Both the position numbers and the translations under genes were made by a program. Source: Mytilus trossulus (taxonomy: Eukaryota). From it: a stretch of 64,000 bases of DNA. The notes under the pieces are model-generated. The model had not been told where the DNA came from, did not search any database, and saw only the letters and a program-made list of their open reading frames with translations. The DNA is taken from positions 25,296,001-25,360,000 of the forward strand of contig NC_086382.1 of assembly GCF_036588685.1 (NCBI RefSeq). The letters are read 5' to 3'. Numbering within the stretch: the first letter of the stretch is position 1; each line of letters starts with the position of its first letter. This document shows positions 10,463 to 55,805 of the stretch, piece by piece.

Positions 10463-13400
10463 TTAATCACTACTGAAATAGAAATCTGCATGTCCTGGTG
10501 TATTTCCTATTTGACATGCCATAGTTACATCATATTCTATTTTCCATGTTGTGGCATCCACATACGACAGCAGAAATGTTAATGTATTGTTGGGTTGAAC
10601 ATTGCCGACAAAGACCACTCGATAATACATTGGACTCGTCGAAATAGGAAAATACAATGTCATATATTTGGAGAAGCTGATAGTGCCTTCTTTTGTTATC
10701 TTGAAATCTAAGACAAAATATAAATATTGATTGAGTAATTAAAAAATGCATGCGAAATCCAAATTATTAAATGTGTGTCATAAGCAGAGAAATAATATAT
10801 AGAATGTTATTATACAAACTCCCAAGAAGACATACGCAATTAAATAGTAAGTGAAAAGTGTTTTAATCCTGAATATGTTTTCATTCTTTGAGTTTTGTTT
10901 CGATTGCATATCGTACATAGTTTTTGTTAATTTCATTTAAAATATTTATGAATCAGGACGAATTCGCACTCAACGTTTGTCTATTGTTTTGTGTAGTAGC
11001 AGTATGTGAACCCCCACGAGTTTGGTTAATTTTGGATTGACATGAACCCTTCTTTTTTTTCATTTAAAAGACGAACCAGTTCCACTGAATGATTTGCTTT
11101 TAATTGAATGATGTAGTCTTTGACTTTTTATTCAGAACGGATGATATTTTTTGCAGTTTACGCTATTGTCATATTTGATCATTTAAAAATATTGCCCACA
11201 AGTGGTTACTTGATTATCCAAGCTCTCAAAAAATAAAGTTTTGTGAAAATCATAAGAATTCGAAACCGGATATCTGATCCGAATAATCAGATTTTGACCA
11301 TTTGTTAGAATTGTTTGAAATTGATTCTTGTAATCAATCTAATATTTTCATCTTGTTTCTGCATCAAAAAATAGTTCTATACTTCTATACAAAATAGCAG
11401 GAAAGTATTATTATCCAAAGGATGTTTTTATTATGTTACAATACGTAATTATTATTCAGGAGAATGGAGATTAAGCAGTATTAATCCTCGGGATATTTTT
11501 TAAACCACCATAAATAAGATCTACAATTGTCTTGATCTCAAGAAAGACGTTTGTACTAAAACATATTACCCTTCATATCTCCTCCGACATAATCATCTCC
11601 ACAGTCTTCTCCTGACGGACATTTACAACCTCCGGTTGTAATAACAAATCGAATAAGATCTCCACCTACCACAGTCTGACGGATATCATTGTACGAACTG
11701 AGATGTTTTGGGAAAGCAGGTTTATGTGCCCAAAAACTACAAAATACACTGCGCTATCATTGCAGGTTATAAATGCTGACATCAGACAAGTCAATTAAGG
11801 ACGGACAATAACAACATGTTCAATCATTCCATGATTGATAAGGACTTATAGTAAAACCAAACATTCAAATCGTGATGATCCTTCAAAGGTATTTTTAAAC
11901 ACATTATAATGATAAAATGGCCACTTAAAGATATCAAACCCCTAGTACTTTTTTTTTAACAAAGAGTGTGAATATTAACTAAAATTCCGTTACTAGGGGG
12001 AAATAACAGATAACGAAATCGAAACAGGATTTTTAATCTGATTATATAAGTAAAAACATCGAATAACGAATTTTCAATGGTAATGTCAAACAAGGGTGTA
12101 TTAATATCAACTTACTTTCCATTACCAATGGGCCATTTGCAGATAACTCCCTTTATTTTGTCAGTGTTGTTGGCAAAGAAACCTGGTTTGCCATACATCA
12201 TACGTAAAGTATCTTCCATTATATACATAGAATACAGGTCTACTTTTAATGCTCCTATGAATATAGTTGTAGCAAATTATGATAATAATAATACTGATTA
12301 AAATAATAATAATAATATTACAATATTTAAAGTTAAAGCAAAAAAAAAGATAATAATGTTAGTAATAATTAGTTCACTTGGTACTGAATAATAAGATGAG
12401 GATAGGTGGCTATGTGTCGTCTAGTTGCAGATTAAATAAATTCCTATATCGAAAACATGTTAAAACGATATTAATATAAACTCTGCTATGGTTTAGAACG
12501 ATGTTGTGGTGTTGTTATTTATATGATGATTCACACGGAGGTATTTACATATCGTTGAAGAAAATTTATTGTATTTGTTATATATAAAGACCAATCAATC
12601 TCGAAATCATTTCTTACGATACGATTAAAATTTCTTTAACAGTAATATGAAAATGATGTGCAATTTTTAACAGTTAAAAGAAAATACATAATTATGTGTT
12701 TTCTAGTCATCATTATTAATATATCTGTATTTCAAGATTATTAAAAAGATTTAAACACAATGTTTACTGCACTACCCCTACTGTTGACATTTTTACGTAT
12801 TATGTCTGTTTGTTTTGTTCATACAATGTTTTCAAAATAATGATTTTTTTGCGACAGTAATACAAGTGAGGGATTTAGCTAGCTAAAAACCATGTTAATC
12901 CACCATTTTCTAAGTTAGAACTTGCCTGTACCAAGTCCGGAAAATGACAATGACAGTTGTTGTCCATTCGTATGATGTGTTTGAACTTTTGAATATGCAA
13001 TTTGATCAGGGACTTCCCGTTTTGAAATTCCTTTAAGTTCGGTATTTTTGTTGTCTTACTTTTAACAAACCTTTTGTGTCGAATTCAACTACTTCGTGAT
13101 TGAAAATCAGCTGGACAGCAGCACTCTCTGAACTTTTTGAGGCCAAAAAGAAGTTGATTTCGCCACCAAATATTGGTAAGTCAGCAGCAGCAGCAGCAGT
13201 AGATGAAATTGGTTTGCAGGTTGTCGTATTGAAAAAATATGACACACGTGATCCATTTGTCAGATATGACACGAGGGAATCGTAGGTATGTATTGGTATT
13301 TTTCTAGTATAAAATATAACGATTCATTTAAATTGTAGTATATAATGAAGACATAATCTTTCAATCAGTTTAATTGAAGACTAGAGCTGGCATCATGTCT

Positions 13401-14294
13401 GTAGCTGCTTGTAGTCCTTTGATGCGGTTTAATTGCAAATGAGTCCATTTTCATTAAACTAGTACACATGTTTGTTCATGGGCAAGCTGAAGACTGCAAC
13501 CGGTGCGGTATTTTCTTGTTGTGTTAAACACTAAATGGTTGCCTTCGGTTGGGGTTTTTTACTCTCTGGTCGGGTTGTCTCTTTGGCCCATTTTCCCATT
13601 CTCTGTTTTATGGAAACTATTCTGATGAAATAACATTGACCATTCATCTTTTGCACGGGCATAGTTTTAAATTTGATAATTTTTCAGATATACATATATA
13701 TTCGATTTTTATTGAAAACAAATAACTTTTTGAAGGAAAGCGAAAAAATACAGTGTTTTTTTTCTATCAGGTCTATTGAAAATAAATACAAAATAAATAC
13801 ATTAATTAAAAACAAATTACGGGTAGTACAATCCACGTCCTCCCTGCAAAGGATGTAAAGATAACGAGAAAGCAAAGCCACCCCCTAAAATATGTGTATG
13901 TAATGTGCTAAACAGTTGTTCGGGTTTTTTTTGGTGTGTACTTTTCATCATTTGTTTTCTCGTATTCTGTTTTTTATTTTTTTTATAGTGGAAATGAAGG
14001 CATACATATCTCTCGTCTGTCGAATGGTAACGTTAAATTAATAAGATCATTTGGATAAAAAAAATATCATGTCGTTGTCAGTTTATTTTCGATTTAGGAG
14101 TTTTAAAGTCCATCTTGTATTTTTTGCACTCCTTTTTTATGTGACACACACATAAAAAATCAACAGGGTATGCTGTATTTTAAAAGTCTTTATACAAAAG
14201 AGGAAGATAACTATAATTTCATAAAAACTCACGCTTGATTGGACACTTGAAGGCAGCACAACAACGTACAAAATAATGATATGAAGTAGAACAT
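10463..14294 (-). CDS. Secreted protein with two tandem VirK-like domains, copy 1, 281 aa; exons 14294-14233, 13303-13071, 12254-12116, 11736-11570, 10707-10463
   Basis: All introns GT-AG with consistent phases (2,1,2,1); 846 nt total. Signal peptide MFYFISLFCTLLCCLQVSNQA; domain 1 IHTYDSLVSYLTNGSRVSYFFNTTTC...IFGGEINFF...LIFNH...VICKWPIGNGNFW; domain 2 LSSYNDIRQTVVGGDLIRFVITTGGC...VGGDMKDFKITKEGTISFS...VQPNNTLTFLLSYVDATTW...MACQIGNTPGHADFY. Gene model is strong; VirK call is from recalled consensus. Confidence 0.85.
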
Positions 14295-14688
14295 TCTCAG
14301 TGACCTTATCGGATTGAGACCAGGTATAGACTGTTGAATTGAATAGTATGTTATCTATATAGGGACAAAGATATTAAAATTAATGTTCCACTTTTGATGA
14401 ACCAACAGCATCGCAACGTAACATTTTCAACACTACTTCTTATTTTTGTAAATGTATAATTTCCATACTTACTTAAAATCAACTAATTCATTAGACTACG
14501 ATAACTTAAAATGACCATACAGCAATTCAGAATACGAAAAAAACTTACAAAGAGATAAAAAAAAAAAAAGAAGGAAAAAAGTGTTGAAGTCTTATATGCA
14601 ATTCAAAAGAAGTTTGTTTTTTTAAGAATTGATTGTATCTAAATGACCGTTTCACATCTAAATTGGTTTACTGGTTTATTATATTTTA

Positions 14689-17600
14689 TTAATCACTACT
14701 GAAATAGAAATCTGCATGTCCTGGTGTACTTCCTATTTGACATGCCATAGTAACACCATTTTCTATCTCCCATGTTGTAGCATCCACATACGATAACATA
14801 AAGTTTAATGTATTGTTAGGTTGAACAGTGCCGACCAACACCTCTCGATAATACATTGGACTGGTAGGAATAGGAAAAAATAATATCATAGATTTAGAAA
14901 AGTTGATTGCCCCTTCTTTTGTTATCTTGAAATCTAAAATAAAAATGATTAAATATTTAAAAAAGGCATGTAAAATCTAAATTATTTAGTGTGTCATAAT
15001 TAAAGATGTAATCTTTAGAATGTAATAATCAGTTTACTTTTAAAAGGACAAGTCCCAAAGAAATCATACGCCAACTTTTATCTGACCGGAGAAGCGATTT
15101 TGTCATTCATAGGGATTGCAGATCGTTCAAACCTTTCTATACCCGGTACGAGTTCTAGCTCGACACTAGTTTTGTTGTTATATTTAGTAGCATGTCAACC
15201 TACATGTGTTTTTTCTTCCTTTGGGTCTTCTCGGATTATCTCTTTTATTTGAGTCAGAAACTATTTCTGCTGTATGATTTTCTCTTATTGGAAAGTTGTT
15301 GTATATTTTTTTTAAATATGCAGAACTGATAATCTCCCGTTTTACTGACTACCATGGTAGATTAAGCTTGATTCATATTTGATAATCAAATATTATTTTC
15401 TGCATTTTTTAATTGGGTGGTACCGGCTCACAATATAATAAGCTTCGTGAAAATCATAACAATTTTAGACTAAAGATGTATAACGAACATTTGTTAGAAA
15501 TGATGATTTTGAAATTTATTAATCACTTAAAGGGACACTAGCTACGAGAAAAAAATAATATGATTTCGTCTGTTTCAATCATAAAGGTAGAATAATGAAA
15601 TAATGATTCGTTTTAGCAGCCAATTCGGTTCAACTGTGTCAAAGAAATTAAATATCGCTGATGATTTATTCTTTTGTATGTGAGTAATTTGACCTCTGTG
15701 AATCCTTAATCATGTGACCTTAATTATTCAATTACCTAGAAATTGGTTATGCAAACATAAGTCATATCCATCCATTATAAGGAAACGAATGTCTCATTAA
15801 AGTGAAACAAAGGTGAATCATTTCGTTGGTTGATTCGATTCACAAAAAAAGATCATTCTTAAACAGGTAAAAACGTTTATAAACCTTTAACATGAAATCA
15901 AACAGACCTTTACAAATTCAATTGCACGATTTCGCAATCTATTTATGTTTATGTTTTTGTTTATATCGGATTCAGTGACCATCGGCAGTATTCAGATGTC
16001 ATCTCGATAGTAAATTCGATGGGGTCTGGACTAAAATACATAAGAAATTCTATATATATCATCGATTACCTGCTTTTTTACTGTTTATTTCAAACTTATA
16101 GTAGTTGGATAATCGTTAAAGATTTTTATGATTGAAATATGAGAATTCGAATCTAATTAGTGAACATGAATTTGACAGCTAGTGTCCTTCCAAGAAGAGA
16201 GTCAATATGTTCGCTTACATCAGGTTGAGATGTATTCCAAGAAACAAAAACTTTGTTTGCTTTAATAATCCTTTTCATTTTTTATACATCAAATCACGTT
16301 TAATTATCCAAAGAAGTTGTTTTTATATAACATTATAGTTAATTATGTTTCTGTAGGCAAGATATTTAACAGTTTGAAACATTTATTTTTTTACGCCATC
16401 ATAAAAAAAGATCTGCAATAGAGTTGAACTGAAGAAAGACGTTTGTACTAAAACAGATTACCCTTCATATCTCCTCCGACATAAGCATCTCCGCAGTCTT
16501 CTCCAGTCGGACATTTACAACCTCTGGTTGTAATAACAAATCGAATAAGATCTCCACCTACCATAGTCTTCCGGATATTATCATACGAACCGAGATGTTT
16601 TAGGGTAGCAGGTTCATCAGCCCAAAAACTACAGAATACAATATAGGTTATTACTGTAAGTTAATATTGCTGACATCAGACAAGTCAATAAAGCACGTAC
16701 TATGACAACGTGTTCAATAATATCGTGGTGGAAAGGGACGTATAGTAAAACCAAACACTCAGATCATGATGACCCTTTGTTGGTTGACCGTTGTGGAATG
16801 ATATGCGACCTACCGAATTAGACTATTTACCGGATTTGATATAAAATTAACAACACGACGGATGCCAAATGTGGATCATAACTGCTTACCCTTCCGGAGC
16901 ACCTGAGATCACCCCTACTTTTGGTTGGGTTCGTGTTGCATATTATTTAGTTTTTTATGTTGTGTCAAGTGTTCTACTGTTTGTATGTTTGTCTTTTTCA
17001 TTCTTAGCCATGGAATGTAACTTTATTTTCGATTCATGAGTTTGAAGGTCCCTCTGGTATCTTTCGTCCCTCTTTCAAAGGTCTTTACACGTTGTAATGA
17101 CAAACTAAATGACCGCTTTCGCGTCTGGCGCACATATCAAATTTCAATCCTGGTATCTATAATGAGTTTATTTACAACCACTTGGTCGATGCCACTGGAT
17201 GCTCAGGAATAGATCACCTCAGCAGAATTTGGCAAAACTTTTAGAAGTGTTGGTCCTCAATGCTATTCAACTTCGTTCTTTATTTGGCCTTATTAACTTT
17301 TTTTGTTCGAGCGTCACTGATGAGTCTTTTGTAGACGAAACACGTGTCTGCTGCATATACGAAATTTCAATCCTGATATCTATGATGAGTTCATTTACAG
17401 ATAAAAAGCATTCAGTACTATTTTCGAACAAAGAGATAATATATGAATATACAACAAGATTCCGTTTTACTAGTAAATGCACTTGCAAATAACGAACAAT
17501 CGACGGGATGTTAAAGCACGTTGTAGAAGTAATAAATCGTTTAACAAGTTTTCAGTGGTCTCGTCAAACATAGTGTATACATATAATAAAATTGAGAATG

Positions 17601-18993
17601 AAAAAGGTGAATGTGTCAAAAAGACAATAACCTGACCAAAGAGCAGACAAAAGCGGAAGGCCACCAATTGGTCTTCAATGCAGCGAGAAACTCCCACACT
17701 CGGAGACGTGCTTCAGCTGGCCACTTAACAAAAATATATACTAGTTCAGTGATTATGGACGTCATACTAATCTACGAAATATACACAATAAACTTAAATT
17801 AAAACTTACTTTCCATTACCAATGGGCCATTTGCAGATAACACCCTTTACGTTGTCAGTGTTGTTAGCAAAGAAACCTGGTTTACCATACATCATGAGTA
17901 AAGTATCGTCTATTATATACATGGAATACAGGTCTACGTTTAATACTCCTGGGCAATAGTAAATAGATAATAATCTTTATTGTCATATAATTATAGTTAA
18001 TGTGACAATGAAAAAACACAATATAGAAAAGAAGTAACAATTCTTAATGAAATGAACTCATTGAAAGACCTCAGTTCAAATAAAGGAACCATTATTTTCA
18101 TGATGGAAGGGTTTAGCGATTCTTTTACTTTTTGTTCTAGGGTAAGATTCATAAAACTATGAATAGGTAAACATTTTTACATGTAAAATGAATTATCCCT
18201 TAGTTTTGTGTTAATTTAAAAAAAAAAAAAAAAAGAGTTTTTTTCTCACCCAGCAAGTGGCACAGTTTACATATTATATCCTTTTCTATGAATATTATAA
18301 TAACAACTTTTTCTATTTCTAAGTTATGGTAACTTATTCTCAACTGCGTATAGAATTTTCATATAGAAAGGTCACTGGAAGCTGGATACAGTTCCCTATC
18401 AAAGTTAAGTCTTAAATTTTCATAAAGTAACAGATTACTTTTTTTATCATAACTTTTTTTTCTATTATCAAACATATTTTGATTTTTTTTTTAATCGTTT
18501 TATTTCATCCAAGTCCCTACACTCATTTACTCTATCTATAAGATATCAGTTTTGTGAAATACTCTTTGCATATATGTATACCAAGAATATATTAAGTAAC
18601 ATTGGAGTCCACAGTTTTAACCATATCAATATTTCTTTAAAAAAAGGATTTATATTTTAAGAATTCAGCCCTCTTAGATCAGATGGAGAATGCGAGATAT
18701 TCAAAGGAGAGTTCATTTAGTTCTAATCGGACTGCTGTATAGGATGCAGTTTTTCTGGTGCCTCGCAAAAAATTACTATTGGGTGGCTATTTCTAATTCA
18801 GAAACATGTTAATAAAAACCCTTCTTTCACTAATTCACATGGACATTTGTTATAGTACATCGTTGAATAATGTGCTTTGTACTTGTTATTCATAAAAGGA
18901 CTTCGTTTTCAAAACAATGATGCTATAATAACAATAACATTATATTGATGTGTATTGTTAAAAAGATAAATGCATGTGTGTTATCTAAGCATC

Positions 18994-19035
<42 letters not shown>

Positions 19036-20512
19036 TATACCTTTTTTGTCGTATTCAACTACTTCGTGGTTGAAAATCAGCTGTACAGCATCCTCCTCTG
19101 GACTCTTTGAAGTCAAAAAGAACTTAATTTCACCTCCAAATATTGGTAAGTCAGCAGCAGAAGCAGTAGATGAAATTGGTTGGCAGGTTGTGGTATTGAA
19201 AAAATATGACACTCGTGATCCATTTGTTAGATATGACACGAGAGAATCATAGGTGTTTATTGGTACTTTTCTGGTAAAAAATAGAACAAATCATATATAT
19301 ATATATACTATTATATAAAATAAAGACAATCTGTGAAGTTCAAACAGTTAAATTGAGTTCATGAGCTGGCATGTCAGTAACTACTAATAGTTCTTTGTTA
19401 ATGTATGTGTCATTGTCATTTTACTGTCCATGTTACAGTACTGTGTGTTTGTTTTATCTACATTGGCTAGAGGTATAGGGTGAGTCTTAAGATATCCAAA
19501 AACATGTTTAACGCCAACGCATTTTTGCGCCAGGCTAATGTCAGGAGCCTCTGCCTTAGCCAATCTTGTATTATGTATCTTTCAATTTTAGTTCATCGAT
19601 ACATTTTGGATTTTTTTAAATAATAAAGCAGATGTGGTATGATTGCAAATGGGTCCATTTTCACTGAACTAGAACACATAAGTGTTTATGGACAAGCTGA
19701 AGTCCTCCACCGGTGCGGGATTTTCTCGGTGTGTTCAATATTCATTGGTGTCTTCGGCTGGGTTTTTTTTTAACTTTTTGGTCGGGTTGTTGTCTCTGAG
19801 GTTATCACAAGCCCAGTTGTCAGCACTGTTTGTGCTGACATGAATTATCATTGATATGGTTATAGTTATAAATTTACTGTTTACAAAATTTAGAATTTTT
19901 TGAAATACGAAGGCTTTTCTACCTCATGCATAGATTACCTAAGCTGTATTTGGCAACTCTTTGAGAATTTTGGTCCTCAAAGCTCTTCAACTGCGTACTT
20001 TTTTGGCCTTTTCAATTTTTTGGGATTGGAGCGTCACTGATGAGTTTTTTGTAGACGAAACGCGCGTCTGGCGATAATACAAATTGTCGTCCTGGTATCT
20101 ATGACGAGTTTATATATTCGATCCATTCCACATTCGCTCAATTTTATGGGAATTATTCTGATGAAATAGCATTCATCTTTTGTAAAGTGATGGTTTTTAT
20201 TTGATAAATTTTCTGCAAGTTTTCGATTGTTATTGACAACAATTAACTTAGGATAGTGAATAAAAATATTTGTTTTCATATCATGTATATTGAAAATAAG
20301 TACATAAGTACAGAGAGAGTTTGAAAGTCCCTCTGGTATCATTCGCCCCTCTTTTAAATGGCAGACGCATGAAAAACCAACAGTATATACTGCGTTTTTA
20401 AACTTATTAATTCAAAAGAGGAAGATAACTATAATTTCTTAAAAACTCACTCTTGATTGGACACTTGGAGGCAGCACAGAAAAGTGCAAAATAATGATAT
20501 GAAGTAGAACAT
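14689..20512 (-). CDS. Secreted protein with two tandem VirK-like domains, copy 2, 280 aa; exons 20512-20451, 19270-19041, 17948-17810, 16628-16462, 14933-14689
   Basis: Exon sizes 62/230/139/167/245 versus 62/233/139/167/245 in copy 1; open frame throughout; about 83% amino-acid identity to copy 1 by manual count. Confidence 0.85.
17311..17355 (+). ncRNA. Hammerhead ribozyme variant in retrozyme repeat (~17120-17395)
   Basis: GCGTCACTGATGAGTCTTTTGTAGACGAAACACGTGTCTGCTGC; core intact, helix III palindrome changed to ACACGTGT, helix I weakened. Confidence 0.6.
18997..19032. repeat. (TA)n microsatellite a few nt inside the intron after exon 2 of VirK-like copy 2
   Basis: About 18 TA units seen directly. 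Confidence 0.9.
20031..20073 (+). ncRNA. Hammerhead ribozyme in retrozyme repeat (~19800-20110)
   Basis: GCGTCACTGATGAGTTTTTTGTAGACGAAACGCGCGTCTGGCG. Confidence 0.7.
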
Positions 20513-21689
20513 TCTCAATGATCCTATCAGGTAGAAACAAGCTATCGTCTGTTAAATAAATTGAATAATAGGTTATCTATATAGACAAAGATATGAATAT
20601 TAATGTCCCACTTTAGTGAACCAAATGTCATGTTTAGTAATTAATATAACAGGATTGCACATAAGTCATAGCAAGGACTAAGTAAGTAAGTAAGTAAGTA
20701 ATTCAAAATAACAATACGATCAGCGTGTGAGTGTGTATTTCTTTCTTTACTTTGTCGTTAATTTGCCATTAAGGTTTTGAAAAAAAATCAACAGAAAGTC
20801 TGTGACTAGCTGTTTTCAAGTTAAATTGTTATTCGAGTGCTACAATAAAGGACCAAACTTCGTCTCTTACTTCATTGTTTTTCGTATATGAATTTTGGAA
20901 AATCAATCACAGCCTATATATAGCTAATATATGAACATATTTATGTACACTTGCATAAGGTCGATTTCTATCCGACGCAGCTCAAACTTGAAAATTATCT
21001 AAGAGTCCGAAGGGGGTCACTAGCAAACCATATAACTCATAAAATGACCGTTGGCAGTCTGTGGATGTGATCTAGAAGTAATGCTGATACATATTATCGA
21101 CTCCATTGATTGTTAATCGTTTAATATAGACTTTGTATTTTTGATATACGTTTTTGTATGTTATAAAACAAATAAAATCGGGAAACAAAAATTTTGACAG
21201 ATAATGACTTTTAATTGGCATAACTCATACTCACTATTAAAACTCAGATATAGTTGACCTCGATAGTAGTATCTAAATAACGTTATCAATCCCACAAAAC
21301 ATATCATTGGCCAATAATCTATTTAAATGATGTAGAGGTCAGATGAACCCTATTATACGAGCATGATCACCTCTTCAATTATTTCAAGATCAATAGTGCT
21401 TATTGATTCAAAGATAAGTATATATTTTCATAAAAACTAAATGTTGATCAGCAACTTAAGAAATCTTGTCCAGGTCTAGTAATACGTCTAACAGACGTGT
21501 TTTAATACCTTGCAATGATTTCCAAATATAGTTGTTATATTGAAATTGAAAAGTTCTCTCGACAAAAACCGCTTAAGTATGCCAAACGAGGTTAAAGACA
21601 AATGCATAAATGAACAAATGCAAAGAGGAACATCTTAGAAAACGACATTTAGTATCCCAGTCTGCTTCCTGTAATATTAATATTTATGG

Positions 21690-28500: not shown

Positions 28501-31500
28501 AGAAAAAAAACCCAATCCCTTCCCCTCTAATTCTATAAACAGGATGTAGAATCAACATCAGATATAAAAGCACTGCTACAGAATTCCTTTTGTTTTCTTT
28601 AAGAGATGAACACTTACTTGGCTTCCATTTTTTGGAAATCTGTACGGGACTGAGTATGAATAGAATTAAATATTGACACTAGGTATCTACAGAGGTTTTC
28701 TAACTGTGGCATTGTTCTGTCTTCTGTTAAACCTGTAAACCATTGCTTTGGAAATGTTGATATGATCTGAAAATTGAACACAGAATATTATGAAACTTCT
28801 AACTCCTGATGATACATCATATGTCAGGGTTCTCGCTAAGGATTTTTGAAGGCGAGTCCAGGGACTTGTCATTTTTGGCCATGATGAGTACAACAGCAAG
28901 AAGAAAATGTTTTATTGCAATATAATATAATATTTTAGTCATCATTTCCTAACAGAGCAATGAAATGACATTAAATTCAGATCACTTTTCAATTTTGCCA
29001 TTAAATGATGATATTTGTGTTAAAATATTTCAAAATTGATGCATCTGTGGAATCACCAGTTTTGAAAATGGTGAGTCCAGACAGATTTTGATGAGAACTC
29101 CGAATTATGTAATGTATTGATAAGAGAATTAGTAATAAGAGGCATGGTGCTTGCTTTTCAGTTTAATTTTTAAAATCCATTTAATTGAGTCTGACGCTAG
29201 TTTCTCTCTTTGACATATCTTACAGCATTGAGTTATTATGTATATAATTATTGTACAGCGCCTTAGAGTAAATTTTATTTTTTACATAGGGAGCTCTATA
29301 AATTTTAATTGTTATTATTATTATTTATATTAATTATTATTATTATTATTATATGTACAAATGTATTTATAAATTTTAAGTTAAATTTTCAAATTTTAAT
29401 TTTGTTTTCTTAATGACAATGAAAAGTACACTACTTATGATATTTTTTTCTGTGCATGATTAATGGTTCAGGGAACAAGGTATACTACCACTTAAACAGC
29501 ATTAAAATGCTGACATTCATTTCTAAACAAATTTCTTATTTTTCAATCAACATTTCTACATATTAGCATGTATTCCTGTTATTTATGGAGCCCTGGATTA
29601 ATTATTTTTAGAGGATATAATTCTGTTCCCTCAATATTGAGATTCATCTGAGAATAATATTCAAAATGCCTTTTGAACCAAAGAAATAAAATTGAAATAT
29701 CCCACAAGCAATACTTTTTGATATAGCCTGGTTGATTTTTCACCAACTTGTTACTAATACACAATACATGTTCATTAGACTTACTGATTGACATTTCTGG
29801 ATAGTTTCTTGACCAATGGGTGAATTACACAGACCAAGTATGATATAACGATTTAATAACCCATCCAGGGCGAGACTGTGTAGTACTTTACTGGAGAGGA
29901 TTCCATGCCAACTCAAAATATTACCTAGCAGCTGAAACATAAAAGATAAATTACAATGAAAACTTTGATAAATTACAATTAAAACTATGATAAAATACAA
30001 TGCATTTTTTTTTAATATATTAACTTGTGAATATATGTCTTTTTTTTGTTGGAATCCAAAAATTCGACAATTGATTATTTTTGTCCAGTCATTTCTTTTA
30101 AACTTGCAGCCAACCAGGAAAGAGTGCTGACTAGACAAAGCATAGCCTTGCTTTTGCTCCCTGTTGAAGGCTTAATTTGAACCTGTAATGGTTTAATTCT
30201 ACAAATTGTGACTTGGATGGACAGCTGTCTCATTGGCGCTCATGCCACATCTTCTTATATATATATATATATCCACCAATTCACTTGTAAATATATTATG
30301 TGTTACTATACTGCTATGATTTACCTTTATACATGTCCAGGACTGTCTATGAAAGAATACAGATGAACCAGATCCTCTATTTTCCGTTACTCTGAAAAGA
30401 AAATTATCGTTATTTTCGAAAAAAAAAAAAAAAAAAAATCTTAGATTTTTCTGTTTAAGATTTTTCTGTTCAATAATTTTCAGTGTCACACTTCTGTAGT
30501 CAACTATGAAATAAAGGTCAAAACCCTTCAAACTTGTTTTTTTTAACAAAAGATGATTGCTTCCATTTTTTATTTACAAATGTATAAATTACTTATATTA
30601 TATAGTGTCTAAAAATAGCAACAATCAACATTCAATCTATCTAGGTGTGGATTAGTTTGTAAATAACTGATGCAGTTACTAAATTAAATTATAAAAGTGT
30701 CTAAGAATGTAACTTTAACACACTAATGAGTGTTATACAATTAGGTGTTATATTTTATATATTATTCACGCAATATTTCGCTATTAGACAAATTAGCTTC
30801 ATCGGGCGTGTGCATCTATCTAGGTGAAATCGGATGCATGACAAAAAATATCTTTGTAGCTTGAGCTACACAAAAGTTTCACATATTGATTGATGGTCTG
30901 TATAAAACAATTTTTTGCCGTTTATTGTACATAAACATTTTTTTTAAATTAAAACAAATAGTTGTTATAGTTAAAAAGAAATTAAAATTCATGATTTATT
31001 CCTTTGGTTTCAGGTAGAATTTTTTTCATCCCTCTCATTAAGTCCATCAGGTTCAAGAGTACGTAGCTGATGCATCCAGAACCTTTCTCTCTGTTTCCTC
31101 CTTTCAGATTTTGGTTTACCTCAATTATTTGAAAGGTGATATTATCAAAAGTATGTCCTGTTCTTAAGAGATGTCTCCTAAATGGACAGTTTCTTTCTTT
31201 TGTATAGAACGACCGGTGATTGTTAAGTCTGATGTTGAATGTAGTTTCTGTTTCATCAACATACTGCAGCTTGCAAGTTCCACATATAAGAATATAAATA
31301 CTATTTTCCGTTTTGCAATTAGATGTAACATAGATGATGTATGGCTGCTTTGTTACTGTGCTGCTGAAAGAGTTTCAGTGTTGGCTGCTTTGCATCACTT
31401 ACAATTGCTTCTACCGCATTGTTTGTAACACCCAAATTTAGAAGTTTCTTGTTTCTTTAATTTTAATGTCACAAGTATGTCTTTGAGATTTTTGGGTCTG

Positions 31501-34500
31501 CGATAGGCAATAACAGGAGGTGATGGGAAAATTTCTTTTAAGGAAGAGTCATTTTCTATTAGACGCCAGTGCTTTCGGACAGAAGATGATATATTTGTCA
31601 AATCGGGATGGAAGGTTACTTATTACTTATATTATATGTAAAATATATATAATACTGTTATTAGGAGAAGAGATCAAAAGACTTACGATTTGGGATAAAG
31701 AGGCATAAAAACATCATCATCAAGGGTCTTCTTCATTCTGTTAACAACAGCTCTCAGTAATTCCTGTAACAAAAGATATGGAATTATAAGTCAACATTTC
31801 TGGCATAAATTGTTCTATAAAGATTCTGTCAATGGTTCTACTTGATATTTAGAATTCAACTTTTCAAGGTTTACATAAATGTTTTATGAAAGGATATTGA
31901 CAGATTACTTTCAAGTTATACAAGATAAACCAATAAAAACATAATGCACTTTAATGTATTTTTTTATTTTCAAATCCTTGTTTATACTTCACAGATTAAT
32001 AATAATACACATTTTAACTCTGGATAGTTCCTTTTACAACTATATATAGTTATAAGAAGATGTGGTATGAGTGCCAATGAGACAACTCACCATCCAAGTC
32101 ACAACGTATAAAAGTAAACCATTATAGGTCAAAGTACGGTTTTCAACACAGAGCTTTGGCTCACACTGAACAGCAAGCTATAAATGACCCAAAAAATTAC
32201 TAGTATAAAACCATTCAAACAGGAAAACCAACAGTCTAATCTGTATAAAAAACAAGAAACACTTATGAACCACAGCAACAAACCACAACGTCAGATTCTT
32301 GACTTTTGACAGGTGTGTATACAAAGGCAGCAAGTTTAAACATTTTAATAGGTACCAACCTTCTCCCTTATCTGCTATTTTTAAAACAAAACATGCATAG
32401 ATCTAACCTGTTTAGCTGGAGTAGCGCCATATTACTACAACTACACATTAGAAACAACCCAGTCATATTTATGGCAATAACACTGATAATCCTAATCGAC
32501 TAAGATTGGGAGCCAAACACACCATGCCACCAAAAGGGTAGGAATTCACAAACTCAAAGTTGAAAGTCTAGTTTTCAGTAAATGAACTAATCAAGACAAC
32601 CTGGCCACAGAAACCCTTTTCGGGAAAGTTTTACTTAGACCACTTGGCTATGCAAGACCTTTGACAAGAGGAGTTATATCATAATGATTTTCAAGACCTA
32701 TTTTTGCTCGCTTGTGCACTTTATTACGCTGTAAATGTGGTTACAACATGGAATGTCTCCTTACCTGTGTTTTTTTGTTATCAGCATGAACTGATGGATA
32801 TTCATTTATAATTTTTTGAACGACATTTACTAGCCTGGAAGTTTGTGTTGTTGATAATGGATCCCAAATTTTCTCAGCAAATACTGAAAAGCAAGATGAC
32901 ATTCAAATCAGTGTGCATACAAATAAATCTTGAACATAAAATTGATCTTTTAAAAGTATCAACAATTTGTAGAATAATTAAAAAAAATAATCATGATAAT
33001 CGAGCAAATTTAAAATTTCTGTTTACGTTTCTTTTAAGTAAAGAAGGACATTGAACCATTCATTTTAATAGACAAAATAAAAATTGAATTTGTCGCCAAA
33101 GTTTTTCTATTGACCAAAAACTCTTTTTTGTGAAAATCTCAACTTAACACTGTAAATCAAGAACTATAGCAGCTTTCAATCCATTTCGATACTGAACATG
33201 CAATACAACTGTCATAGAATAATATTACATAATTATTTAAAGAGATTTTATGTAGTCATTCCATTCCATTACTAACTATCGGGCCAATACACTGTTTTAC
33301 TATTTGTCTGTTGTTAGTGACACACACATCCTCGAAATATTTTGATGCCAGTAGTACAAGTGTCACTTTATATCGGGTCAAGTGATTTCAACAGATTTCA
33401 AAAATAGTAATGAGATCTTTTAAAACAAAATAAAAATAGATTTTTAGCTCTTTTCCTTAAATTGCCTATCTTACCAGTAAGACGAGGTTGAATAATTTTT
33501 TCCACAATAGTGGGTAATAATTTTACATCATCATCAACATTTTCCACTAATTCTTCAAGTTTTGAACCATAAAAAAGCATGGTATCAAACCAACTGTTCT
33601 CTTCAAAATCTCGACAACTTTCCTATAAAAGAAAGATTTCATAATTGATAATCATGCATATTTAAAAGCTTTTTTTAACATTTACAGATCTGTTTTTATT
33701 TAAATTTCTCCTTTAATACAATTTCCCTCTGACAGTGGCTTAGGTTAGCTCGTCTTTTAAAATATTCTGTTAACTTCTTTTTGATAACACGTTTTTCAAA
33801 TGCTTTAAATATTTATAAGCAGCCCACAAAAATATCAAGATCACAGTCCTTTTTCACAAAAAGGAATATGTAAGTTATTACACAAATTGTTGCAAGTTGA
33901 TGAACATAGACAATATATGAGCATGTAATTCAGTGGATGTCTTTTGTTGCTGTTTTCATAATTCAGTTTTTCGTTCATTATTTATGAACACAAATCAGGC
34001 ATTAAGTTTTCTAGTTTGAATTGTTTTACATTTGTCCCTTCCAACTTTTCTAGCTGACTGTGTAGTATGGTTTTCACTCATTGTTCATGTTGTTGAAGAC
34101 TTTTAGTGACACAGTTGGGGAAAATTTTTTGAATCCCCTACTGCGTTATTCAATATACCCTCCCATTTCTGCTCAGCTGCTTTTACAACTGGTATTGCAC
34201 CTTGATTTAAAATACTATACATGTCTTTTAAACCTTTGTTTGACTTGAAAAAATATTAATATTAAAAGGTAACAAAGCTTGTATTTTTTTTCACTTTCAG
34301 TGTTGATTCCCATAAATTGTAACCATTTTTTTAATGCTACTTTAATACCATAAAATTGTAAAAATGTGGGTTTAAAAGAATATAGCTGTTCAAAGTTTTT
34401 GATAAGACAATATATTCCCTTGCTCATCTTGAAGGTCATTCACAGTCCATACTTCTATAATAAACACTGAAGTTATCAATTTTGATGTTCTCATTTTTCC

Positions 34501-37500
34501 ATACAGAGAAAGATATGACTTCCTCAAAATAGTGAGGAGGTCAGAGTCTAGACATATTTTTCCAGGCACAAATAACTTATTTCCAAAAATCGTTATCTAA
34601 TTGTTTAGTTGTTCCAAAATAAGCCAACTTTGTAAAATTTATATTTTGTGTAGCAGTAAATAAGTTGATCCACTTTGAACTTGAATTAAACAATCTTCTA
34701 ACCCAGGTCAATTTTAGCCTTTGTATAAAATTTCTCAAATTAATCATTTTTAATCCACTTCTACAATTTTCTTGACATAAAAGACCTATAATTAATTCAT
34801 GTGTCATTTTGTCTCTTGTTCAGAGATGTCTTATTGGCATTGGTACCACATCTTCTTATTTTTATATAGACATGTAACTTCATTTTTATGTAATAAAGAA
34901 AGATAGAATTATTTTTGTAAAGCTTTTATGAAAGGTGTGAAAGGAGTAAGTTCGATAAGTGCCACATTTGGCCCCAATTATAAAGTTCATGGTTACAAGA
35001 CGGAAATTGTTTTAAGTTGCCTTAAAGACATGTGAGAAAGTTAAACAGAGCTTTTTTTTGACAAAGTTTAATTCTAACACTTTGATTTTTACATCCCAAA
35101 AAGGTCAAGATAAGGGATTTTGGTGAAATTTGACAAAATCAGCTGGATTTCAACCAAAAAAGGACCAGGAAACATAGAGCGCAGGCGTCGACAAGCTTAA
35201 TATTCAAATAAGACATGTTAGATGTCTTCACAAACATTATTTTAAAAGATCTTTGTTGTCGACGTATGCGCCCTATGTTTCTTGTCAAATAATCTTTGGA
35301 AATTTACCCATTTTCATTGATTTTTTCGTGAAAAATCAATATGAGTACAACTTGTGACGTCATAATGAAATGCAGAAACGTAAAATTTTCAACAAAATGG
35401 CTTATATCCTATCTAGTCAATGTATTAGCTATAATTTATCGTAATATTGGTCAATAAATCCGAATTTGAAATTTACGCTAAAAAAGGGGGCCATTTTAGG
35501 ACCTTATCGAACATACTCCTTTACACCCCAAGAAGTACAAACATAAACAATTTCAATAATAGTTGTCAATTTGGTCTGGATTTTAATTAAATTTGATTGG
35601 GTTTAGGAAATCCAGGGCTCATGATGTTGGAAACACTAAATATTGATGTTTGCCTTTAGAGCTTGCTGTTCAGTGCTAGCCAAGGCTCTGTGTTGAATGC
35701 TGTTCTTTGACCTTTAAATGTTAACTTTCTATACCTTGTGACTTGGATGGAGTGTTGTCTCATTGGCACTCATACCACATCTTTCTTTGTATACTCTGAA
35801 ATTTTAGCTAGAAATTGGGGCATAAATCTTCACCTTTTCTTGTTTAATTGTTATCCTACCTGTAATGGATTCCAGTTGATCAGCTGTAACCGTACAAATG
35901 GATTCACCAGTTTGGGTAGACATAGTCCTATATAGGCCTCTTTATATGTATCATTGTATAAAGACCTCCAGTCCTCAAATCTTTCTCGTATGGAATGGAT
36001 CTCACTAAAATCTTCCACCACGTCCTCAAATAATCTCTCAACTCCAGTGTGTATGCTTTCTAAGAATAAAAAGAAACATTTCTTGGTTAAAAATATTTCC
36101 TCAGGGTAAAACTTTTAAAAATTCATGTTCCAAAGGTAAAATACTGTAGTATTTTTTGTTAAAACGATAGAATGATTATAAATACAACTGTATTGCAGTT
36201 TCCAACTATAACAGTTTTCCTAAAAAAAAATGACTTGACCTGTCTGTAATTACTTTTTCAAACATTCCTGTTCAGTTTAAATTTTATTACTATCTTATAG
36301 ATAGTTTACACAATATCTACCTTTTCACACTCTGTAACAACTGTATCTAAATGCTATAGACAGTGCAATTATACAGAATTTTTCTATGTAAGGATCCTCA
36401 ATTGAAATGTTGACTGTTGTAAATATTCACACAGATACTTCAGGTATCACCCGAACAGGTCACTAAGGTGCTCAATTTACAGATTTATCATACTCAAAGA
36501 CTAAAGAGAGTTAACAACACATTTACAATATTTAATGTCATTTTTGAAAAAGCATCATTAAGTCAACAAATGGCCTTTGGGAGATATTTTATGTACACTC
36601 TATGCATATCTTTTAAGTGGGTAGGGTATGATGAATAAAATATCTTTCCACCTTTTTCCAGATTAAATTTAGTAATTTCTGATTGGTTTTGTTCGTCATC
36701 TGAGGAAAGACCATCATGGTGACCTACAATATCTTTAGACTCTCTTAACCTTCTTCTCCTGGCCCTGAAACAGAGAATAACTATGTCAACTTGTTTGCTA
36801 AATAAATGAAGGGCACAAAGCATATTAATTAACATTCTGTGCTAGTGTGTTTGAAAAAGCTCAAGTGTGTGTTTTTATCATTGTTTTGTTTTTTGTAATG
36901 GTTGGTTCTCCAGAGGTAAAACAAATTCATAAAAAAGACATGTTTGCTAATTATATATGTATATTTTGCATACGTATATTGGTGAAACTAAGTTTTTAGT
37001 AATTCTTCTTGTCCTTATTAGAGGGTTTTATTACACAAATATGAAAAATATGTGTATACAATGAAGAAATAAAATCACAGGAGCACAATGAACGCAAAAC
37101 TGCTGAAAGATTTGTTTTTTATGCAATTTCTGAAAACATACCTCCTGGCCTCTCTTTCAGCAACTCTTCTTTGTCTTTCCTGGTCTTCAGATGTCTCTAT
37201 GACAACTATAGCTTTACCTGAAAGATTAAAGGTTACAAACTTAAGGTTTGAATTATTTTGCAATTACACATGAACCTTGGAACCTCCAAGAATCCTTATT
37301 CTTGAGTGACCTTTAAATAAGTCAAGATTTGGCTTGGGTCTTTTTTCAAAATCAAAAGGAGGAGATCAATTTAGAAGAAAAAATATTGAATATTGTTAGC
37401 ATAATTATGATTTGTTATGATCACTTACCTTTGTAACCTACAAATAAAATCTAGCGTTTCCTTACCTGTTTAACAATATCATTTGAGCAATGTTTTGGAG

Positions 37501-40500
37501 CAATTGGTATTTTGCAATACAATTAAATTATACATGTAGTATGACGTATAAAATAGAAAATCAATTAAAAAGTTATTAGAACTGAGGACAGATGAATCTG
37601 GACTATTTACTTGATAAATATGGTTGTATGTGTTAATTTTCATTTATATTGTGTACTTATTTTGCTTCTTACTTGTCACAAACTTACCTTTTGGAAATTT
37701 ATATCATAAAAAATATGCACAGGCAAAACTGGCATTTAATTGCAACCTAGTAAACTGACCCTTTTAAGTTTATAAAGTCAATTTTGAAAGACAAAAATTA
37801 TATGTAAAGAATTTTCATTTATTTTTCACCAGTTTTAGTGCACTTACTATTGTAGTGCTTAAATCGGTTTCTGATATAATGGTTATGCAAATCTTTAAAA
37901 TTTATTATGTTTGTACTCTAAAAAGATTGGTCTCTCTCTCTAAGGATATTAATAATAATTGATATTGGGATTTGTTTTTGTCAAGAATTTTGTTTTAACT
38001 CAAAACCATAACGTATTTGTGTGCACTGACGGCAAAAGTTTATGCAAAAACACCAAGGACCTATCTTAAGTAAAAGTATCAGTATCTTCTAGACTTCATC
38101 AATTATACAGAATGCTATATGATTATAGATGGGACAGAATGGAGTAAACTGGTATAAATACCGACTTGTCATATAATCTTGACACTGGTCTCGTACATCT
38201 TGTTGGCGACGGGATATCAGCCTCTCTGTTCGATTACTTAGCAAGTTAAGCATTTTATTCTCAAGATCGTTGATAGTTGGCACCTAAAATAAAAAGAAAA
38301 TGAATATGACACACATGTAGTGAATTTTTTTTTTGTGTGAACATACAATTTCCTTAGCTTTAATTTTGTTTTTACATTTAAAATAAATCCTTTGTCTAAG
38401 ATTTGATACCAAGTGAATTTTCTGACTGTATTTAAAATATTGAAATTTTGTAACAGAATGAATTGAAGTTTTTTCATAGTCATTTTGATATTTTTTAAAC
38501 TGTTTTAAAGTTTAAAATGATATTACAAGTTATGCTGTAGTTATTATATTTTTACTGAAAACTAAAAAATTGTTCAAACGATTCGATGTTAAATGAAATC
38601 AATGTAAAAAATGTAATTTTTCCTGTTGTTTATATTGTCCATTTTCAATTTGTGTATTCCAGTTTTCTACATAGCAAGTCCCTGACATGCTTATGCTTTG
38701 GATAATGTAATAATCTATAAAGTAGTTCTCATTTTAAGAAATCTCATTGAGGCATTTCCCAACATGTGTGTGTTCTTATATCCATGGATGACCTAACTGA
38801 AACTGAAGTCGTATACATAAAGAATAATATGACATACAATCAAGAGCTTCAACGAGAATCGTTATGTCTATTTCATGGATAAAATGTAGTACTCTTATTT
38901 CTAGATATTTCTTCCTTAATTTGTAAAAGAAATTTCTCCCTTATTTTATAAAAGAATTGTAGTTGCAAAAATAAATTAGTGGTTCCTAATTTCAATTATC
39001 TCTAAAGTGAAAGAGGTAAATATATTTCATAAATCAAACTGACAATACAAGGATGACAACCCTCACATGGCCCCTGTGCCACTTGTATTTATGTAAATCA
39101 AAATCATTTGCACTCAAATAAAACTAAAAACTTTTTTTGAGTATTATTTTTTCAGCAGAATTTTAACTTTAAAATATATAAAATTTTAAGAAAAGTCTTG
39201 TAGCACATAATAATTTAACCAGGATAAAAAAATAAAAGAAATATACAAGTGGCATTAGCCCAACCCTCTTTCTTTCTCGGGACAGAATCCCTCCCAACAT
39301 AGAAGAGACACCCACCTTCTCATTGAGACATTCAACCAAGTCTCTCACATACCCCCTCATTTCTTGGAAGAAGCGATATTGCTCTTCCAACCCTTTGACA
39401 CGTTCTTTACACGTGTCAATACTGGTTGACGATTCCACAATGTCCGTCTCAAGTGTGTCTCTCTCACGCACATGGCTACGGTGTACTTCATCCATAGAGG
39501 TCAGTCTGTAAAGATACATTAGGGTGAAGGATGAAAATAGTATTTCAAATAAAATAAGCACAAATAAAAAAAAAATTATTACATCAAATTTGAATGTCTG
39601 AATATATAATGTAGATAAAAAGAAACTTGCCTACCAAATGTTACATCTTCTGACATCAGCATATCAGATTTTGGACTTCTCTTGAACTGAATGTGTATTG
39701 TTATGCGTTTACTTTTCTAAATTGGCTAGATGTATAGGAGGAGGGTTGAAATCTCATAAACATGTTTAACCCTGCCGCATTTTTGCCCCTGTCCCAAGTT
39801 AGGAGCCTCTGGCCTTTGTTCGTCTTGTATTTTTTTCAATTTCAGTTTCTTTTGTACTATTTGGAGTTTAGTATGGTGTGCACTATCACTGAACTAGTAC
39901 ATATATTTGTTAAGGGGCCAGCTGAAAGACACCACTTGTGCTGGAATTTCTCGCTGCATTGAAGACCTGTTGGTGACCTGCTGTTGTCTGTTCTATGGTG
40001 AGGTTGTTTTCTCTTTGACACATTCCCCATTCCCATTCTCAATTTAATACAATTTTTCTCCTCCATAAAAAGACCACCAGTTGCTTTAAAATGTTTCAAG
40101 AATTTCACTAAATAAATGCAAATAACATTATCAAATATAAATAAATTAACTTAAGCTGTATTCAATTTTTGCAGTTGAATATGTTACAACCAGCTCAGAG
40201 GTATTTATTTTCTAGTTTAACAATAACAATGTTTAGTTATATTTATATAGTTACTGAGGTTAATATATTTTGATAATATTTGAAATAAGTACAAAATTAA
40301 TTCTTTAAGGTGGTACCCAATACCATCACTAAATTTAATTTGGCTAGTCTAATTTTCATAAAATTTTGACCAAGTGTTTACTTTGACCCTTTGACAAAAA
40401 TATAAAGATTTAAAAAAATTTCAACCAACCAATTCATCAGAAAAATTACACTGGTTTTATAGTAGTCTGACAAACACTAATTTTGATCATTGAGAAGCTT

Positions 40501-55100: not shown

Positions 55101-55805
55101 TTTTTTTTAATAATATTATTCAAAAGATAAATTCAAGACAGGCAAAATGTTTATCAGAACAATCAAGAAAGACTTAAGTTACAGCTTTAATTCAATGTCA
55201 TTTTGACTATGCCTGTTCTGCATGGTATGCTGGTGTCAGCAAAAAATATAAAATAAGTTACAAGTATTACAAAACAAATTTGTTAGATTTATAAAAAACA
55301 CTGGATATAGATCAAAAGTTGACCATAATGTATTGAATAGTATTAGATATGTTAATATTAAAAATCGTGTTAAACAATTGAGATTAAACCACGTACATAA
55401 TATTTATTACCACCATTGTCCTAATTATATGTATTCAAATTTTACAAAGGTGAGACATTTACATCATCATTTCACACGAAATAGTGAATATAACTTCTGG
55501 GTTCCTCCAGTTAAGAGTCAACAAAAAGACACATTTTATTTTAATGGCAAACAAGATTGGAATATGTTGCCAATTAATTTTAAAAAGATAAACAAAATAA
55601 AGAATTTCAAAATTAGCGTCAAAGAGCACTTAACCAAAAGTTATAGTGCGGCTTCATCAGACTCCTTTTTATATTATTAATCATATTTTTATATAAATTA
55701 TTTTTATATGAATTTTCATCTCATATTAATTGTGTGTTATCTTTTTTGTATGTCGAAACTATAAGCCGTTTACATGAAGGGACCCCATTGGAAACAAGCT
55801 TTAGA

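Follow-up and report, generated by a model that had tools for sequence, protein, structure and literature searches.

A recent tandem pair of mussel genes for likely secreted double-VirK proteins: an apparently undescribed eukaryotic variant of a bacterial domain family

The window analysed in this work, i.e., a 64,000-nucleotide (nt) stretch of the Mytilus trossulus genome (NC_086382.1, positions 25,296,001-25,360,000; coordinates given below without a contig name are those of the window), harbours two adjacent genes, A and B, each of which encodes a protein of two VirK domains (Pfam family PF06903). A and B are recent tandem duplicates; they are real and conserved, and represent a eukaryotic variant, apparently not described before, of a domain family known from bacteria. 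A broader interpretation, which we regard as evenly balanced, is that the pair belongs to an old eukaryotic family of likely secreted two-VirK proteins, likely acting as non-enzymatic, two-site extracellular binders. In the accessible portions of the literature, PF06903 is listed as restricted to plant-associated bacteria (PMC554113) and VirK is described as a secreted protein without a known function, found specifically in plant-associated bacteria (PMC5700972), with a Legionella outlier (NttG/Lpg1832, VirK-like and of undefined activity; PMC6617341). This picture changes with a family of tandem VirK proteins, intron-bearing in the mussel, that is present in molluscs, in a hemichordate, in an ostracod and, probably, in a microbial eukaryote. 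The initial annotation of this stretch knew of no characterised animal VirK system; likewise, a literature search of main texts found no paper on eukaryotic VirK, although proteomic tables in supplements may list these proteins.

The assignment of both halves of the two proteins to VirK, proposed in the initial annotation, turned out to be right on the basis of predicted structures and profiles. Searches with single exons gave a Pfam VirK match in none of the eight exon frames (0/8), because the introns split the domains. On the whole proteins, PF06903 scored 23.1 and 19.5 bits (E 8.1e-5 and 1.1e-3), just under its gathering cut-off of 23.7, and where two hits per protein had been expected, a single sub-threshold stretch located in domain 2 was found in each. 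PF06903 was the sole family match of both proteins at E up to 1, the CpeT/CpcT family (PF06206, see below) being absent from P0001 and P0003 in the Pfam scan, and the PF06903 tag is already on these proteins in precomputed database annotation. Close oyster relatives lie above the cut-off (29.1, 31.8, 30.5 and 34.9 bits). As for the structure search that had been suggested, the predicted models matched the only solved VirK structure, 5XTA of Legionella (Lpg1832/NttG), in both domains. Indeed, the full-length model matched it in Foldseek with E 5.2e-6 and a target template modelling (TM) score of 0.78, as the sole match below E 0.001; domain 2 (residues 154-278, predicted) aligned to it in VIA with Z 15.8 and a root-mean-square deviation (rmsd) of 2.1 over 117/120 residues (next Z 6.2). 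Domain 1, folded alone and template-free from an 18-row alignment of the window protein and its close relatives (predicted local distance difference test score 80.8), gave Z 12.8 and rmsd 2.6 over 110/120 residues (next Z 5.1). A structure match to VirK was also obtained in the ESM Atlas (TM 0.79), and a sequence search of solved structures returned 5XTA only (E 0.037), the identity between the latter and the window domains being 12-14%.

Profile comparisons carry the same assignment to the sequence level. Domain 2 matched a set of 30 bacterial-type domains (mostly of the single-domain groups described below) with an hhalign E of 8.6e-20, and domain 1 with 5.2e-7, chiefly over its first half. 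The two domains matched each other with E 1.8e-6 (reversed control 0.045). Thus, the two internal repeats of about 120 amino acids (aa) that had been described hold by profile and structure, but pairwise the repeat is barely visible, its score being reached by 17/1000 shuffles in B and 256/1000 in A. The VirK motif, which runs from a helix Leu through Gly, V/I and Cys to a further Gly, an F-S pair and a late Cys, is present in both domains (G38/G170, C50/C182, G67/G196, F88/F212 and C137/C265), except that domain 1 has Asn in place of the Ser and the Leu of the helix is replaced by Val in domain 2. It is almost certain, judging from the predicted models, that both domains have the VirK fold, and domain 1 is the more diverged of the two.

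The gene models themselves are well defined. Gene B lies on the minus strand at 20512-14689 (five exons, 843 nt coding, 280 aa), and gene A on the same strand at 14294-10463 (five exons, 846 nt coding, 281 aa). All of the introns (8/8) are GT-AG, with phases 2,1,2,1 and sizes of 379-1528 nt, and there are zero internal stops. Once spliced, gene A equals P0001 (LOC134686119) and gene B equals P0003 (LOC134686120), letter for letter, among the database proteins of M. trossulus; therefore, the same models had been reached by an independent gene predictor. The introns, the open frames and this identity confirm the earlier claim of two intact five-exon genes, whose parts are as follows.

Gene B, exon 1: 20451..20512, minus strand; start codon and, by hydropathy, likely signal peptide; phase-2 donor.
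Gene B, exon 2: 19041..19270, minus strand; first half of VirK domain 1 (helix, G38, C50, GG motif); phase-1 donor.
Gene B, exon 3: 17810..17948, minus strand; second half of domain 1 (second conserved Cys); phase-2 donor.
Gene B, exon 4: 16462..16628, minus strand; last strand of domain 1, linker, start of domain 2; phase-1 donor.
Gene B, exon 5: 14689..14933, minus strand; remainder of domain 2 and stop; AATAAA 9 nt past the stop.
Gene A, exon 1: 14233..14294, minus strand; start codon and, by hydropathy, likely signal peptide; phase-2 donor.
Gene A, exon 2: 13071..13303, minus strand; first half of VirK domain 1.
Gene A, exon 3: 12116..12254, minus strand; second half of domain 1 (C137).
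Gene A, exon 4: 11570..11736, minus strand; last strand of domain 1, linker, start of domain 2 (C182, C184, C190).
Gene A, exon 5: 10463..10707, minus strand; remainder of domain 2 (C265) and stop; ATTAAA at +9 and AATAAA at +223.
Head-to-tail tandem duplication: 10199..20624, no strand; units 72-92% identical in eight DNA blocks (blastn).

The blocks of identity between the two tandem units fall mostly around the exons, the 3' flank included, and a genome search with exon 5 revealed A and B as the only two close copies. The proteins share 233/281 residues, the synonymous divergence (dS) is 0.26, and the nonsynonymous-to-synonymous ratio (dN/dS) is 0.32 (bootstrap 0.21-0.49); therefore, both copies evolved under purifying selection. 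In the domain tree (see below) they are sisters (100/99) within a mussel-oyster subfamily, apart from the subfamily of a third gene on the contig C10. Hence the tandem amplification that had been noticed in this stretch corresponds, for A and B, to a recent event.

The comparison with bacterial VirK shows what is old and what is particular in the mussel proteins. The fold of both window domains is that of PF06903, whose members include the Ti-plasmid VirK of Agrobacterium/Rhizobium, the proteins of Xanthomonas and Dickeya, and the Legionella one. Shared features are the N-terminal helix and the Gly and Cys motif; the hydrophobic N-terminus of the mussel proteins, a likely signal peptide, would also agree with the secretion of the bacterial ones (type II). 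Bacterial VirK is a small single domain of about 140 aa, whereas the window proteins have two domains, 280-281 aa and five exons; unlike it, they also have a eukaryotic host, sequons for N-glycosylation and, in domain 2, an additional pair of Cys residues. The two-domain build is a variant architecture of the same domain. A pattern scan recovered 35 bacterial loci, all single-domain, stand-alone genes, mostly of uncultured Bacteroidota but also of Cloacimonadota, Marinimicrobia, Ignavibacteria and Myxococcota, a mix of taxa that mirrors the Bacteroidota-type query used. Such genes are sparse, being found in 9/401 Bacteroidota and 6/401 Myxococcota genomes (counts that include the centre genome). 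The single-domain proteins of Bacteroidota, Myxococcota, Cloacimonadota and other groups match domain 2 of the window proteins strongly by profile, have variable neighbourhoods and are uncharacterised; the Bacteroidota-type ones tend to lack the second Cys, which is present in 13/32 rows labelled bacterial (for P0063, P0065, P0069, P0074-P0076, P0078 and P0080 the label itself was inferred). Plasmids of Rhizobium, Pantoea and Brucella, 15 in all, were seen to carry classical virK, and in two of the three plasmid loci viewed the gene follows immediately after one for a GNAT acetyltransferase (L090:1814-2866 and L091:1970-2926). The VirK-YbjX proteins of Shigella, Klebsiella and Vibrio, which we take to be a different Pfam family (DUF535), have only the name in common with the window genes. 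They are described, in the accessible text, as membrane-associated envelope factors (PMC13109725, PMC12562796), and their virulence data should not be carried over to the mussel genes.

A and B are not the only genes of this kind in the mussel genome. A search with PF06903, PF06206 and two relatives as queries, followed by exon tracing (so that the counts are lower bounds), revealed four further double-VirK genes with open exons, on contigs C6, C9, C10 (some 220 kb away from A and B) and C11, that is, at least six in total on four contigs. The intron phases are 2|1|2|1 in 6/6 traced genes; the domain-2 intron occupies a single column of the alignment in 6/6, and the two domain-1 introns lie within a few columns of each other, in gappy loops. 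In the C10, C9 and C11 genes (C10:25086127-25090716, C9:72018381-72022494 and C11:44721572-44727684), exons 2-5 are open, and a candidate first exon was seen in the C10 gene only. Degenerate fragments of the C10 and C11 paralogues, interrupted by an in-frame stop or by breaks in the reading frame, lie at C10 ~25259570-25260510 and C14:23857419-23857526. Three other Pfam matches in the mussel genome (L004, L005 and L006) were unsupported by the VirK domain profile and were discarded.

The C6 gene (C6:51124883-51142700, minus strand; L008, L010-L012) has an upstream CpeT/CpcT exon (PF06206, E 3.5e-19) followed by the two VirK domains, and its product is likely secreted. The same build occurs in proteins of the limpet Lottia gigantea (LOTGIDRAFT_228780) and the argonaut Argonauta hians (GAB1603732.1), and in the tree each of the two C6 domains forms a starred pair with that of Argonauta (99/90 and 100/84). 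These fusions, also uncharacterised, share the double VirK module with the window genes (and C6 also the intron phases), and differ from them in the N-terminal CpeT/CpcT-family barrel, which the window genes lack. Since the fusion is common to mussel, limpet and argonaut, the double-domain layout is likely older than the mollusc classes; from the protein architecture and the intron positions in the mussel, it is very likely that the doubled, intron-bearing module predates the bivalve-gastropod-cephalopod split. Around C6 ~51126570-51126430 (L011, minus strand), a diverged second version of the exon that encodes the latter half of domain 1 lies only about 35 nt beyond it and has an AG acceptor of its own; this copy is possibly a mutually exclusive or a decayed duplicate exon. 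The CpeT-family barrel is presumably the bilin-binding lyase fold, and the occurrence of a phycobiliprotein-lyase-type domain in animals is worth a separate study. A cluster of 95 CpeT-like proteins, most of them from molluscs, exists in the ESM Atlas (score 0.81) and serves as a lead only. Slug genes named 'CPCT1/2', which may or may not belong to PF06206, change in muscle under salt stress according to the accessible part of PMC13336835.

The family also extends beyond the bivalves. Of 1.84 billion representatives searched with a profile, 70 matched at E up to 0.001; 25 of these were named or looked up, and most of the remaining ones are single-exon fragments closest to oyster proteins. A word-based search with the broad alignment A4 gave 11 proteins, three of them new, so that the eukaryotic range is a lower bound. 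Orthologues occur in other mussels and oysters, with several loci in Ostrea edulis and Mytilus californianus, and the distant named relatives come from Saccoglossus kowalevskii, Cyprideis torosa, Lottia, Argonauta and Mytilus coruscus. The hemichordate Saccoglossus has four VirK repeats and a hydrophobic C-terminal tail, and the ostracod Cyprideis has three. An intronless gene with two VirK domains lies on a compact metagenome contig (L053, 2531 nt), about 100 nt after the end of a P4-type phospholipid ATPase gene (E 3.4e-57). P4-ATPases are, we assume, eukaryote-specific, and because of this neighbour the contig likely comes from a microbial eukaryote. Four double-VirK proteins (P0067, P0090-P0092) are about 43% identical to the L053 one. 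Another protein, P0080 (325 aa), is a lipoprotein of bacterial type that carries a pair of VirK domains and clusters with Myxococcota sequences (96/90). Therefore, domain doubling also occurred in bacteria.

What might these proteins do? The N-termini of A and B, encoded by an exon of their own, are hydrophobic (KD11 2.59 and 2.50), and no later segment of either protein exceeds 1.8; since there is no further hydrophobic segment, the proteins are likely secreted, as had been supposed. The expected N-glycosylation sequons (NGS, NTT, NNT) are there as well, four or five per protein (NGS37, NTT46, NNT127/126 and NNT240/239, with NFS210 additionally in B). Among 75 aligned domains, the best conserved positions are one Cys (75/75), one Gly (73/75) and then hydrophobic ones, and the second Cys is present in 43/43 rows labelled eukaryotic. 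From these two Cys counts we infer one disulfide per barrel. The best-kept polar residue is a Ser (61/75), replaced by Asn in domain 1 of the window proteins. Because the conserved positions are Cys, Gly and hydrophobic residues, and the best polar one is replaced in domain 1, a non-enzymatic binding module is, on these sequence grounds, slightly favoured over the other possibilities. According to this model, the signal peptide would lead the protein into the secretory pathway, where it would be N-glycosylated; one disulfide would staple each small beta-barrel (C50-C137 and C182-C265, with C184-C190 in addition in domain 2); and the mature protein might be released into mucus, haemolymph or gut fluid, binding its ligand via two tethered domains. 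The repetition of the domain, two to four times, might serve avidity.

As for the ligand, a small hydrophobic molecule is proposed first because one paralogue has the same double domain behind a CpeT-family barrel; by analogy, a tetrapyrrole or a lipid can be suggested, an unlikely guess as it stands. A more general and quite unlikely scenario is that VirK is an old extracellular ligand-binding module of bacteria and eukaryotes, which in molluscs might work with a secreted CpeT-type barrel in a so far unrecognised extracellular system that binds or moves hydrophobic molecules, bilin-like pigments for example, the window genes being stand-alone carrier or sensor modules that split off and expanded in bivalves. 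If this were true, the discovery of the ligand would give the whole VirK family its first biochemical function. The animal proteins are harmless ones in which to seek the VirK ligand, and the conserved CpeT fusion is a concrete lead.

The main rival reading, which we consider somewhat unlikely, is a role in immune recognition or mucus defence, with lectin-like two-site binders of microbial surfaces that expanded in filter-feeding bivalves. The likely secretion and glycosylation of the proteins, the recurrent duplication of the genes in mussels and in oysters (the young tandem pair and the degenerate copies included), the fast divergence of domain 1 (a long stem in the tree) and the possible surface anchoring of the four-repeat Saccoglossus form would all suit this idea. 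However, the proteins are acidic rather than cationic (K+R 20-22 vs D+E 25-30), the family is small (six traced genes) with a dN/dS well below 1, and no lectin fold was prominent in the fold searches (Foldseek, VIA).

The origin of the family was examined with a tree of 75 domains (132 columns, LG+G4), which omits 20 of the 43 bacterial domains of one set as well as P0002, P0004, P0007, P0008, P0010, P0012, P0068 and P0092. The initial annotation had suggested that a mollusc acquired a bacterial, virulence-associated domain, possibly by horizontal transfer, which was then duplicated and provided with introns. We consider this very unlikely, and as a mollusc-specific package it is not supported, given the same phases in six paralogues, the CpeT fusion in a gastropod and a cephalopod, and tandem VirK in the hemichordate, the ostracod and the likely microbial eukaryote. 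In favour of transfer stand a fold otherwise described, in the accessible literature, from bacteria (PMC554113, PMC5700972), the patchy eukaryotic spread and the fact that the monophyly of the mollusc domains is kept by the approximately unbiased (AU) test; it is possible that a transfer into early molluscs was accompanied by separate ones into other lineages. The phylogeny with bacterial VirK speaks in part: no animal domain falls inside a starred bacterial clade, the branches being long, but the backbone is open and three AU tests, including the one that places bacteria on one side (p 0.43), were non-significant. In one starred group (98/85), the second domains of the mollusc CpeT fusions are united with the first domains of the microbial-eukaryote protein and of certain other double-VirK proteins. 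Moreover, the coding GC content (0.38; 0.33 at third codon positions, GC3) of the VirK genes is in keeping with an AT-rich host, and the two-domain lipoprotein P0080 implies that the doubling can be explained without an event peculiar to molluscs. There is no support for a recent transfer into mussels or bivalves; an ancient one from bacteria to eukaryotes, either single with many losses or as several old events, is possible, and the presence of VirK in eukaryotes before the molluscs is probable. The label "virulence-associated" is itself weak: most of the bacterial relatives recovered are uncultured Bacteroidota and Myxococcota, and symptoms were unchanged with a virK mutant of Dickeya in the accessible part of the report (bioRxiv 10.1101/2021.08.03.454866).

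It is highly unlikely that the proteins are secreted enzymes or enzyme helpers, loosening, for instance, algal or plant cell walls during digestion. This idea draws on bacterial VirK, a type II secretion substrate (as described for the Dickeya protein) that is induced in planta together with cellulases and polygalacturonases, according to the accessible portions of PMC5700972 and bioRxiv 10.1101/2021.08.03.454866. Against it, the 75 domains contain no conserved catalytic-type residue set, and no recurrent glycoside-hydrolase neighbours appeared at the 35 bacterial loci, whose neighbours were clustered by similarity, without a Pfam scan.

The interpretation that we put forward, an old eukaryotic family of two-site binders, has several points weighing against it. 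At the 35 bacterial loci no neighbour family occurs in more than seven, and those that recur reflect related genomes or common domains, giving no functional hint; functional data on VirK are likewise absent from the accessible portions of PMC5700972, PMC6617341 and bioRxiv 10.1101/2021.08.03.454866, and that of PMC7325957 only cites the 5XTA structure paper. The window genes are without CpeT, which makes the clue to the ligand indirect, and the link between the CpeT and VirK exons of C6, across 13-14 kb, was inferred from likeness to the Argonauta protein. The Cyprideis record sits on a 19-kb contig, so contamination is possible, and the eukaryotic range is patchy, with no vertebrate, insect, nematode, cnidarian, plant or fungus among the 25 looked-up matches of the 70. 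Finally, AU tests retain one clade that unites every mollusc domain (p 0.26) and one that unites the two domains of the window subfamily (p 0.22), so that independent domain duplications are possible.

The probability that we are dealing with contaminating bacterial DNA, a duplicate created by the assembly or a pseudogene is close to negligible: the gene models are predictions from genomic sequence, but the genes have spliceosomal introns, sit on a 78-Mb contig beside a GCFC/PAXBP1-like gene in an order implied to be the same in M. edulis, differ by 17% in protein with a dN/dS of 0.32, and have orthologues in other mussels and oysters.

The GCFC/PAXBP1-like gene lies directly upstream of the pair on the same strand, with exons at about 28600-39600 (minus strand); its PF07842 match is weak, and the frame at 39169-39630 was assigned by eye. 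A 'GCFC'-VirK fusion of M. edulis (P0011) was rejected as a merged gene model, its parts mapping to the GCFC-like neighbour (28617-32902) and to exons 3-4 of the VirK genes. Among the short database fragments examined, none crosses an exon junction with real similarity. Elsewhere in the window, fragments at 53973-55680 (plus strand) resemble, by eye, the reverse transcriptase of a non-LTR (long terminal repeat) retroelement, a 203-aa frame there having no Pfam match. A 543-aa open frame at 46311-47942 (plus strand) matches DUF4371 (E 3.4e-10) and is presumably akin to a hAT-type transposase.

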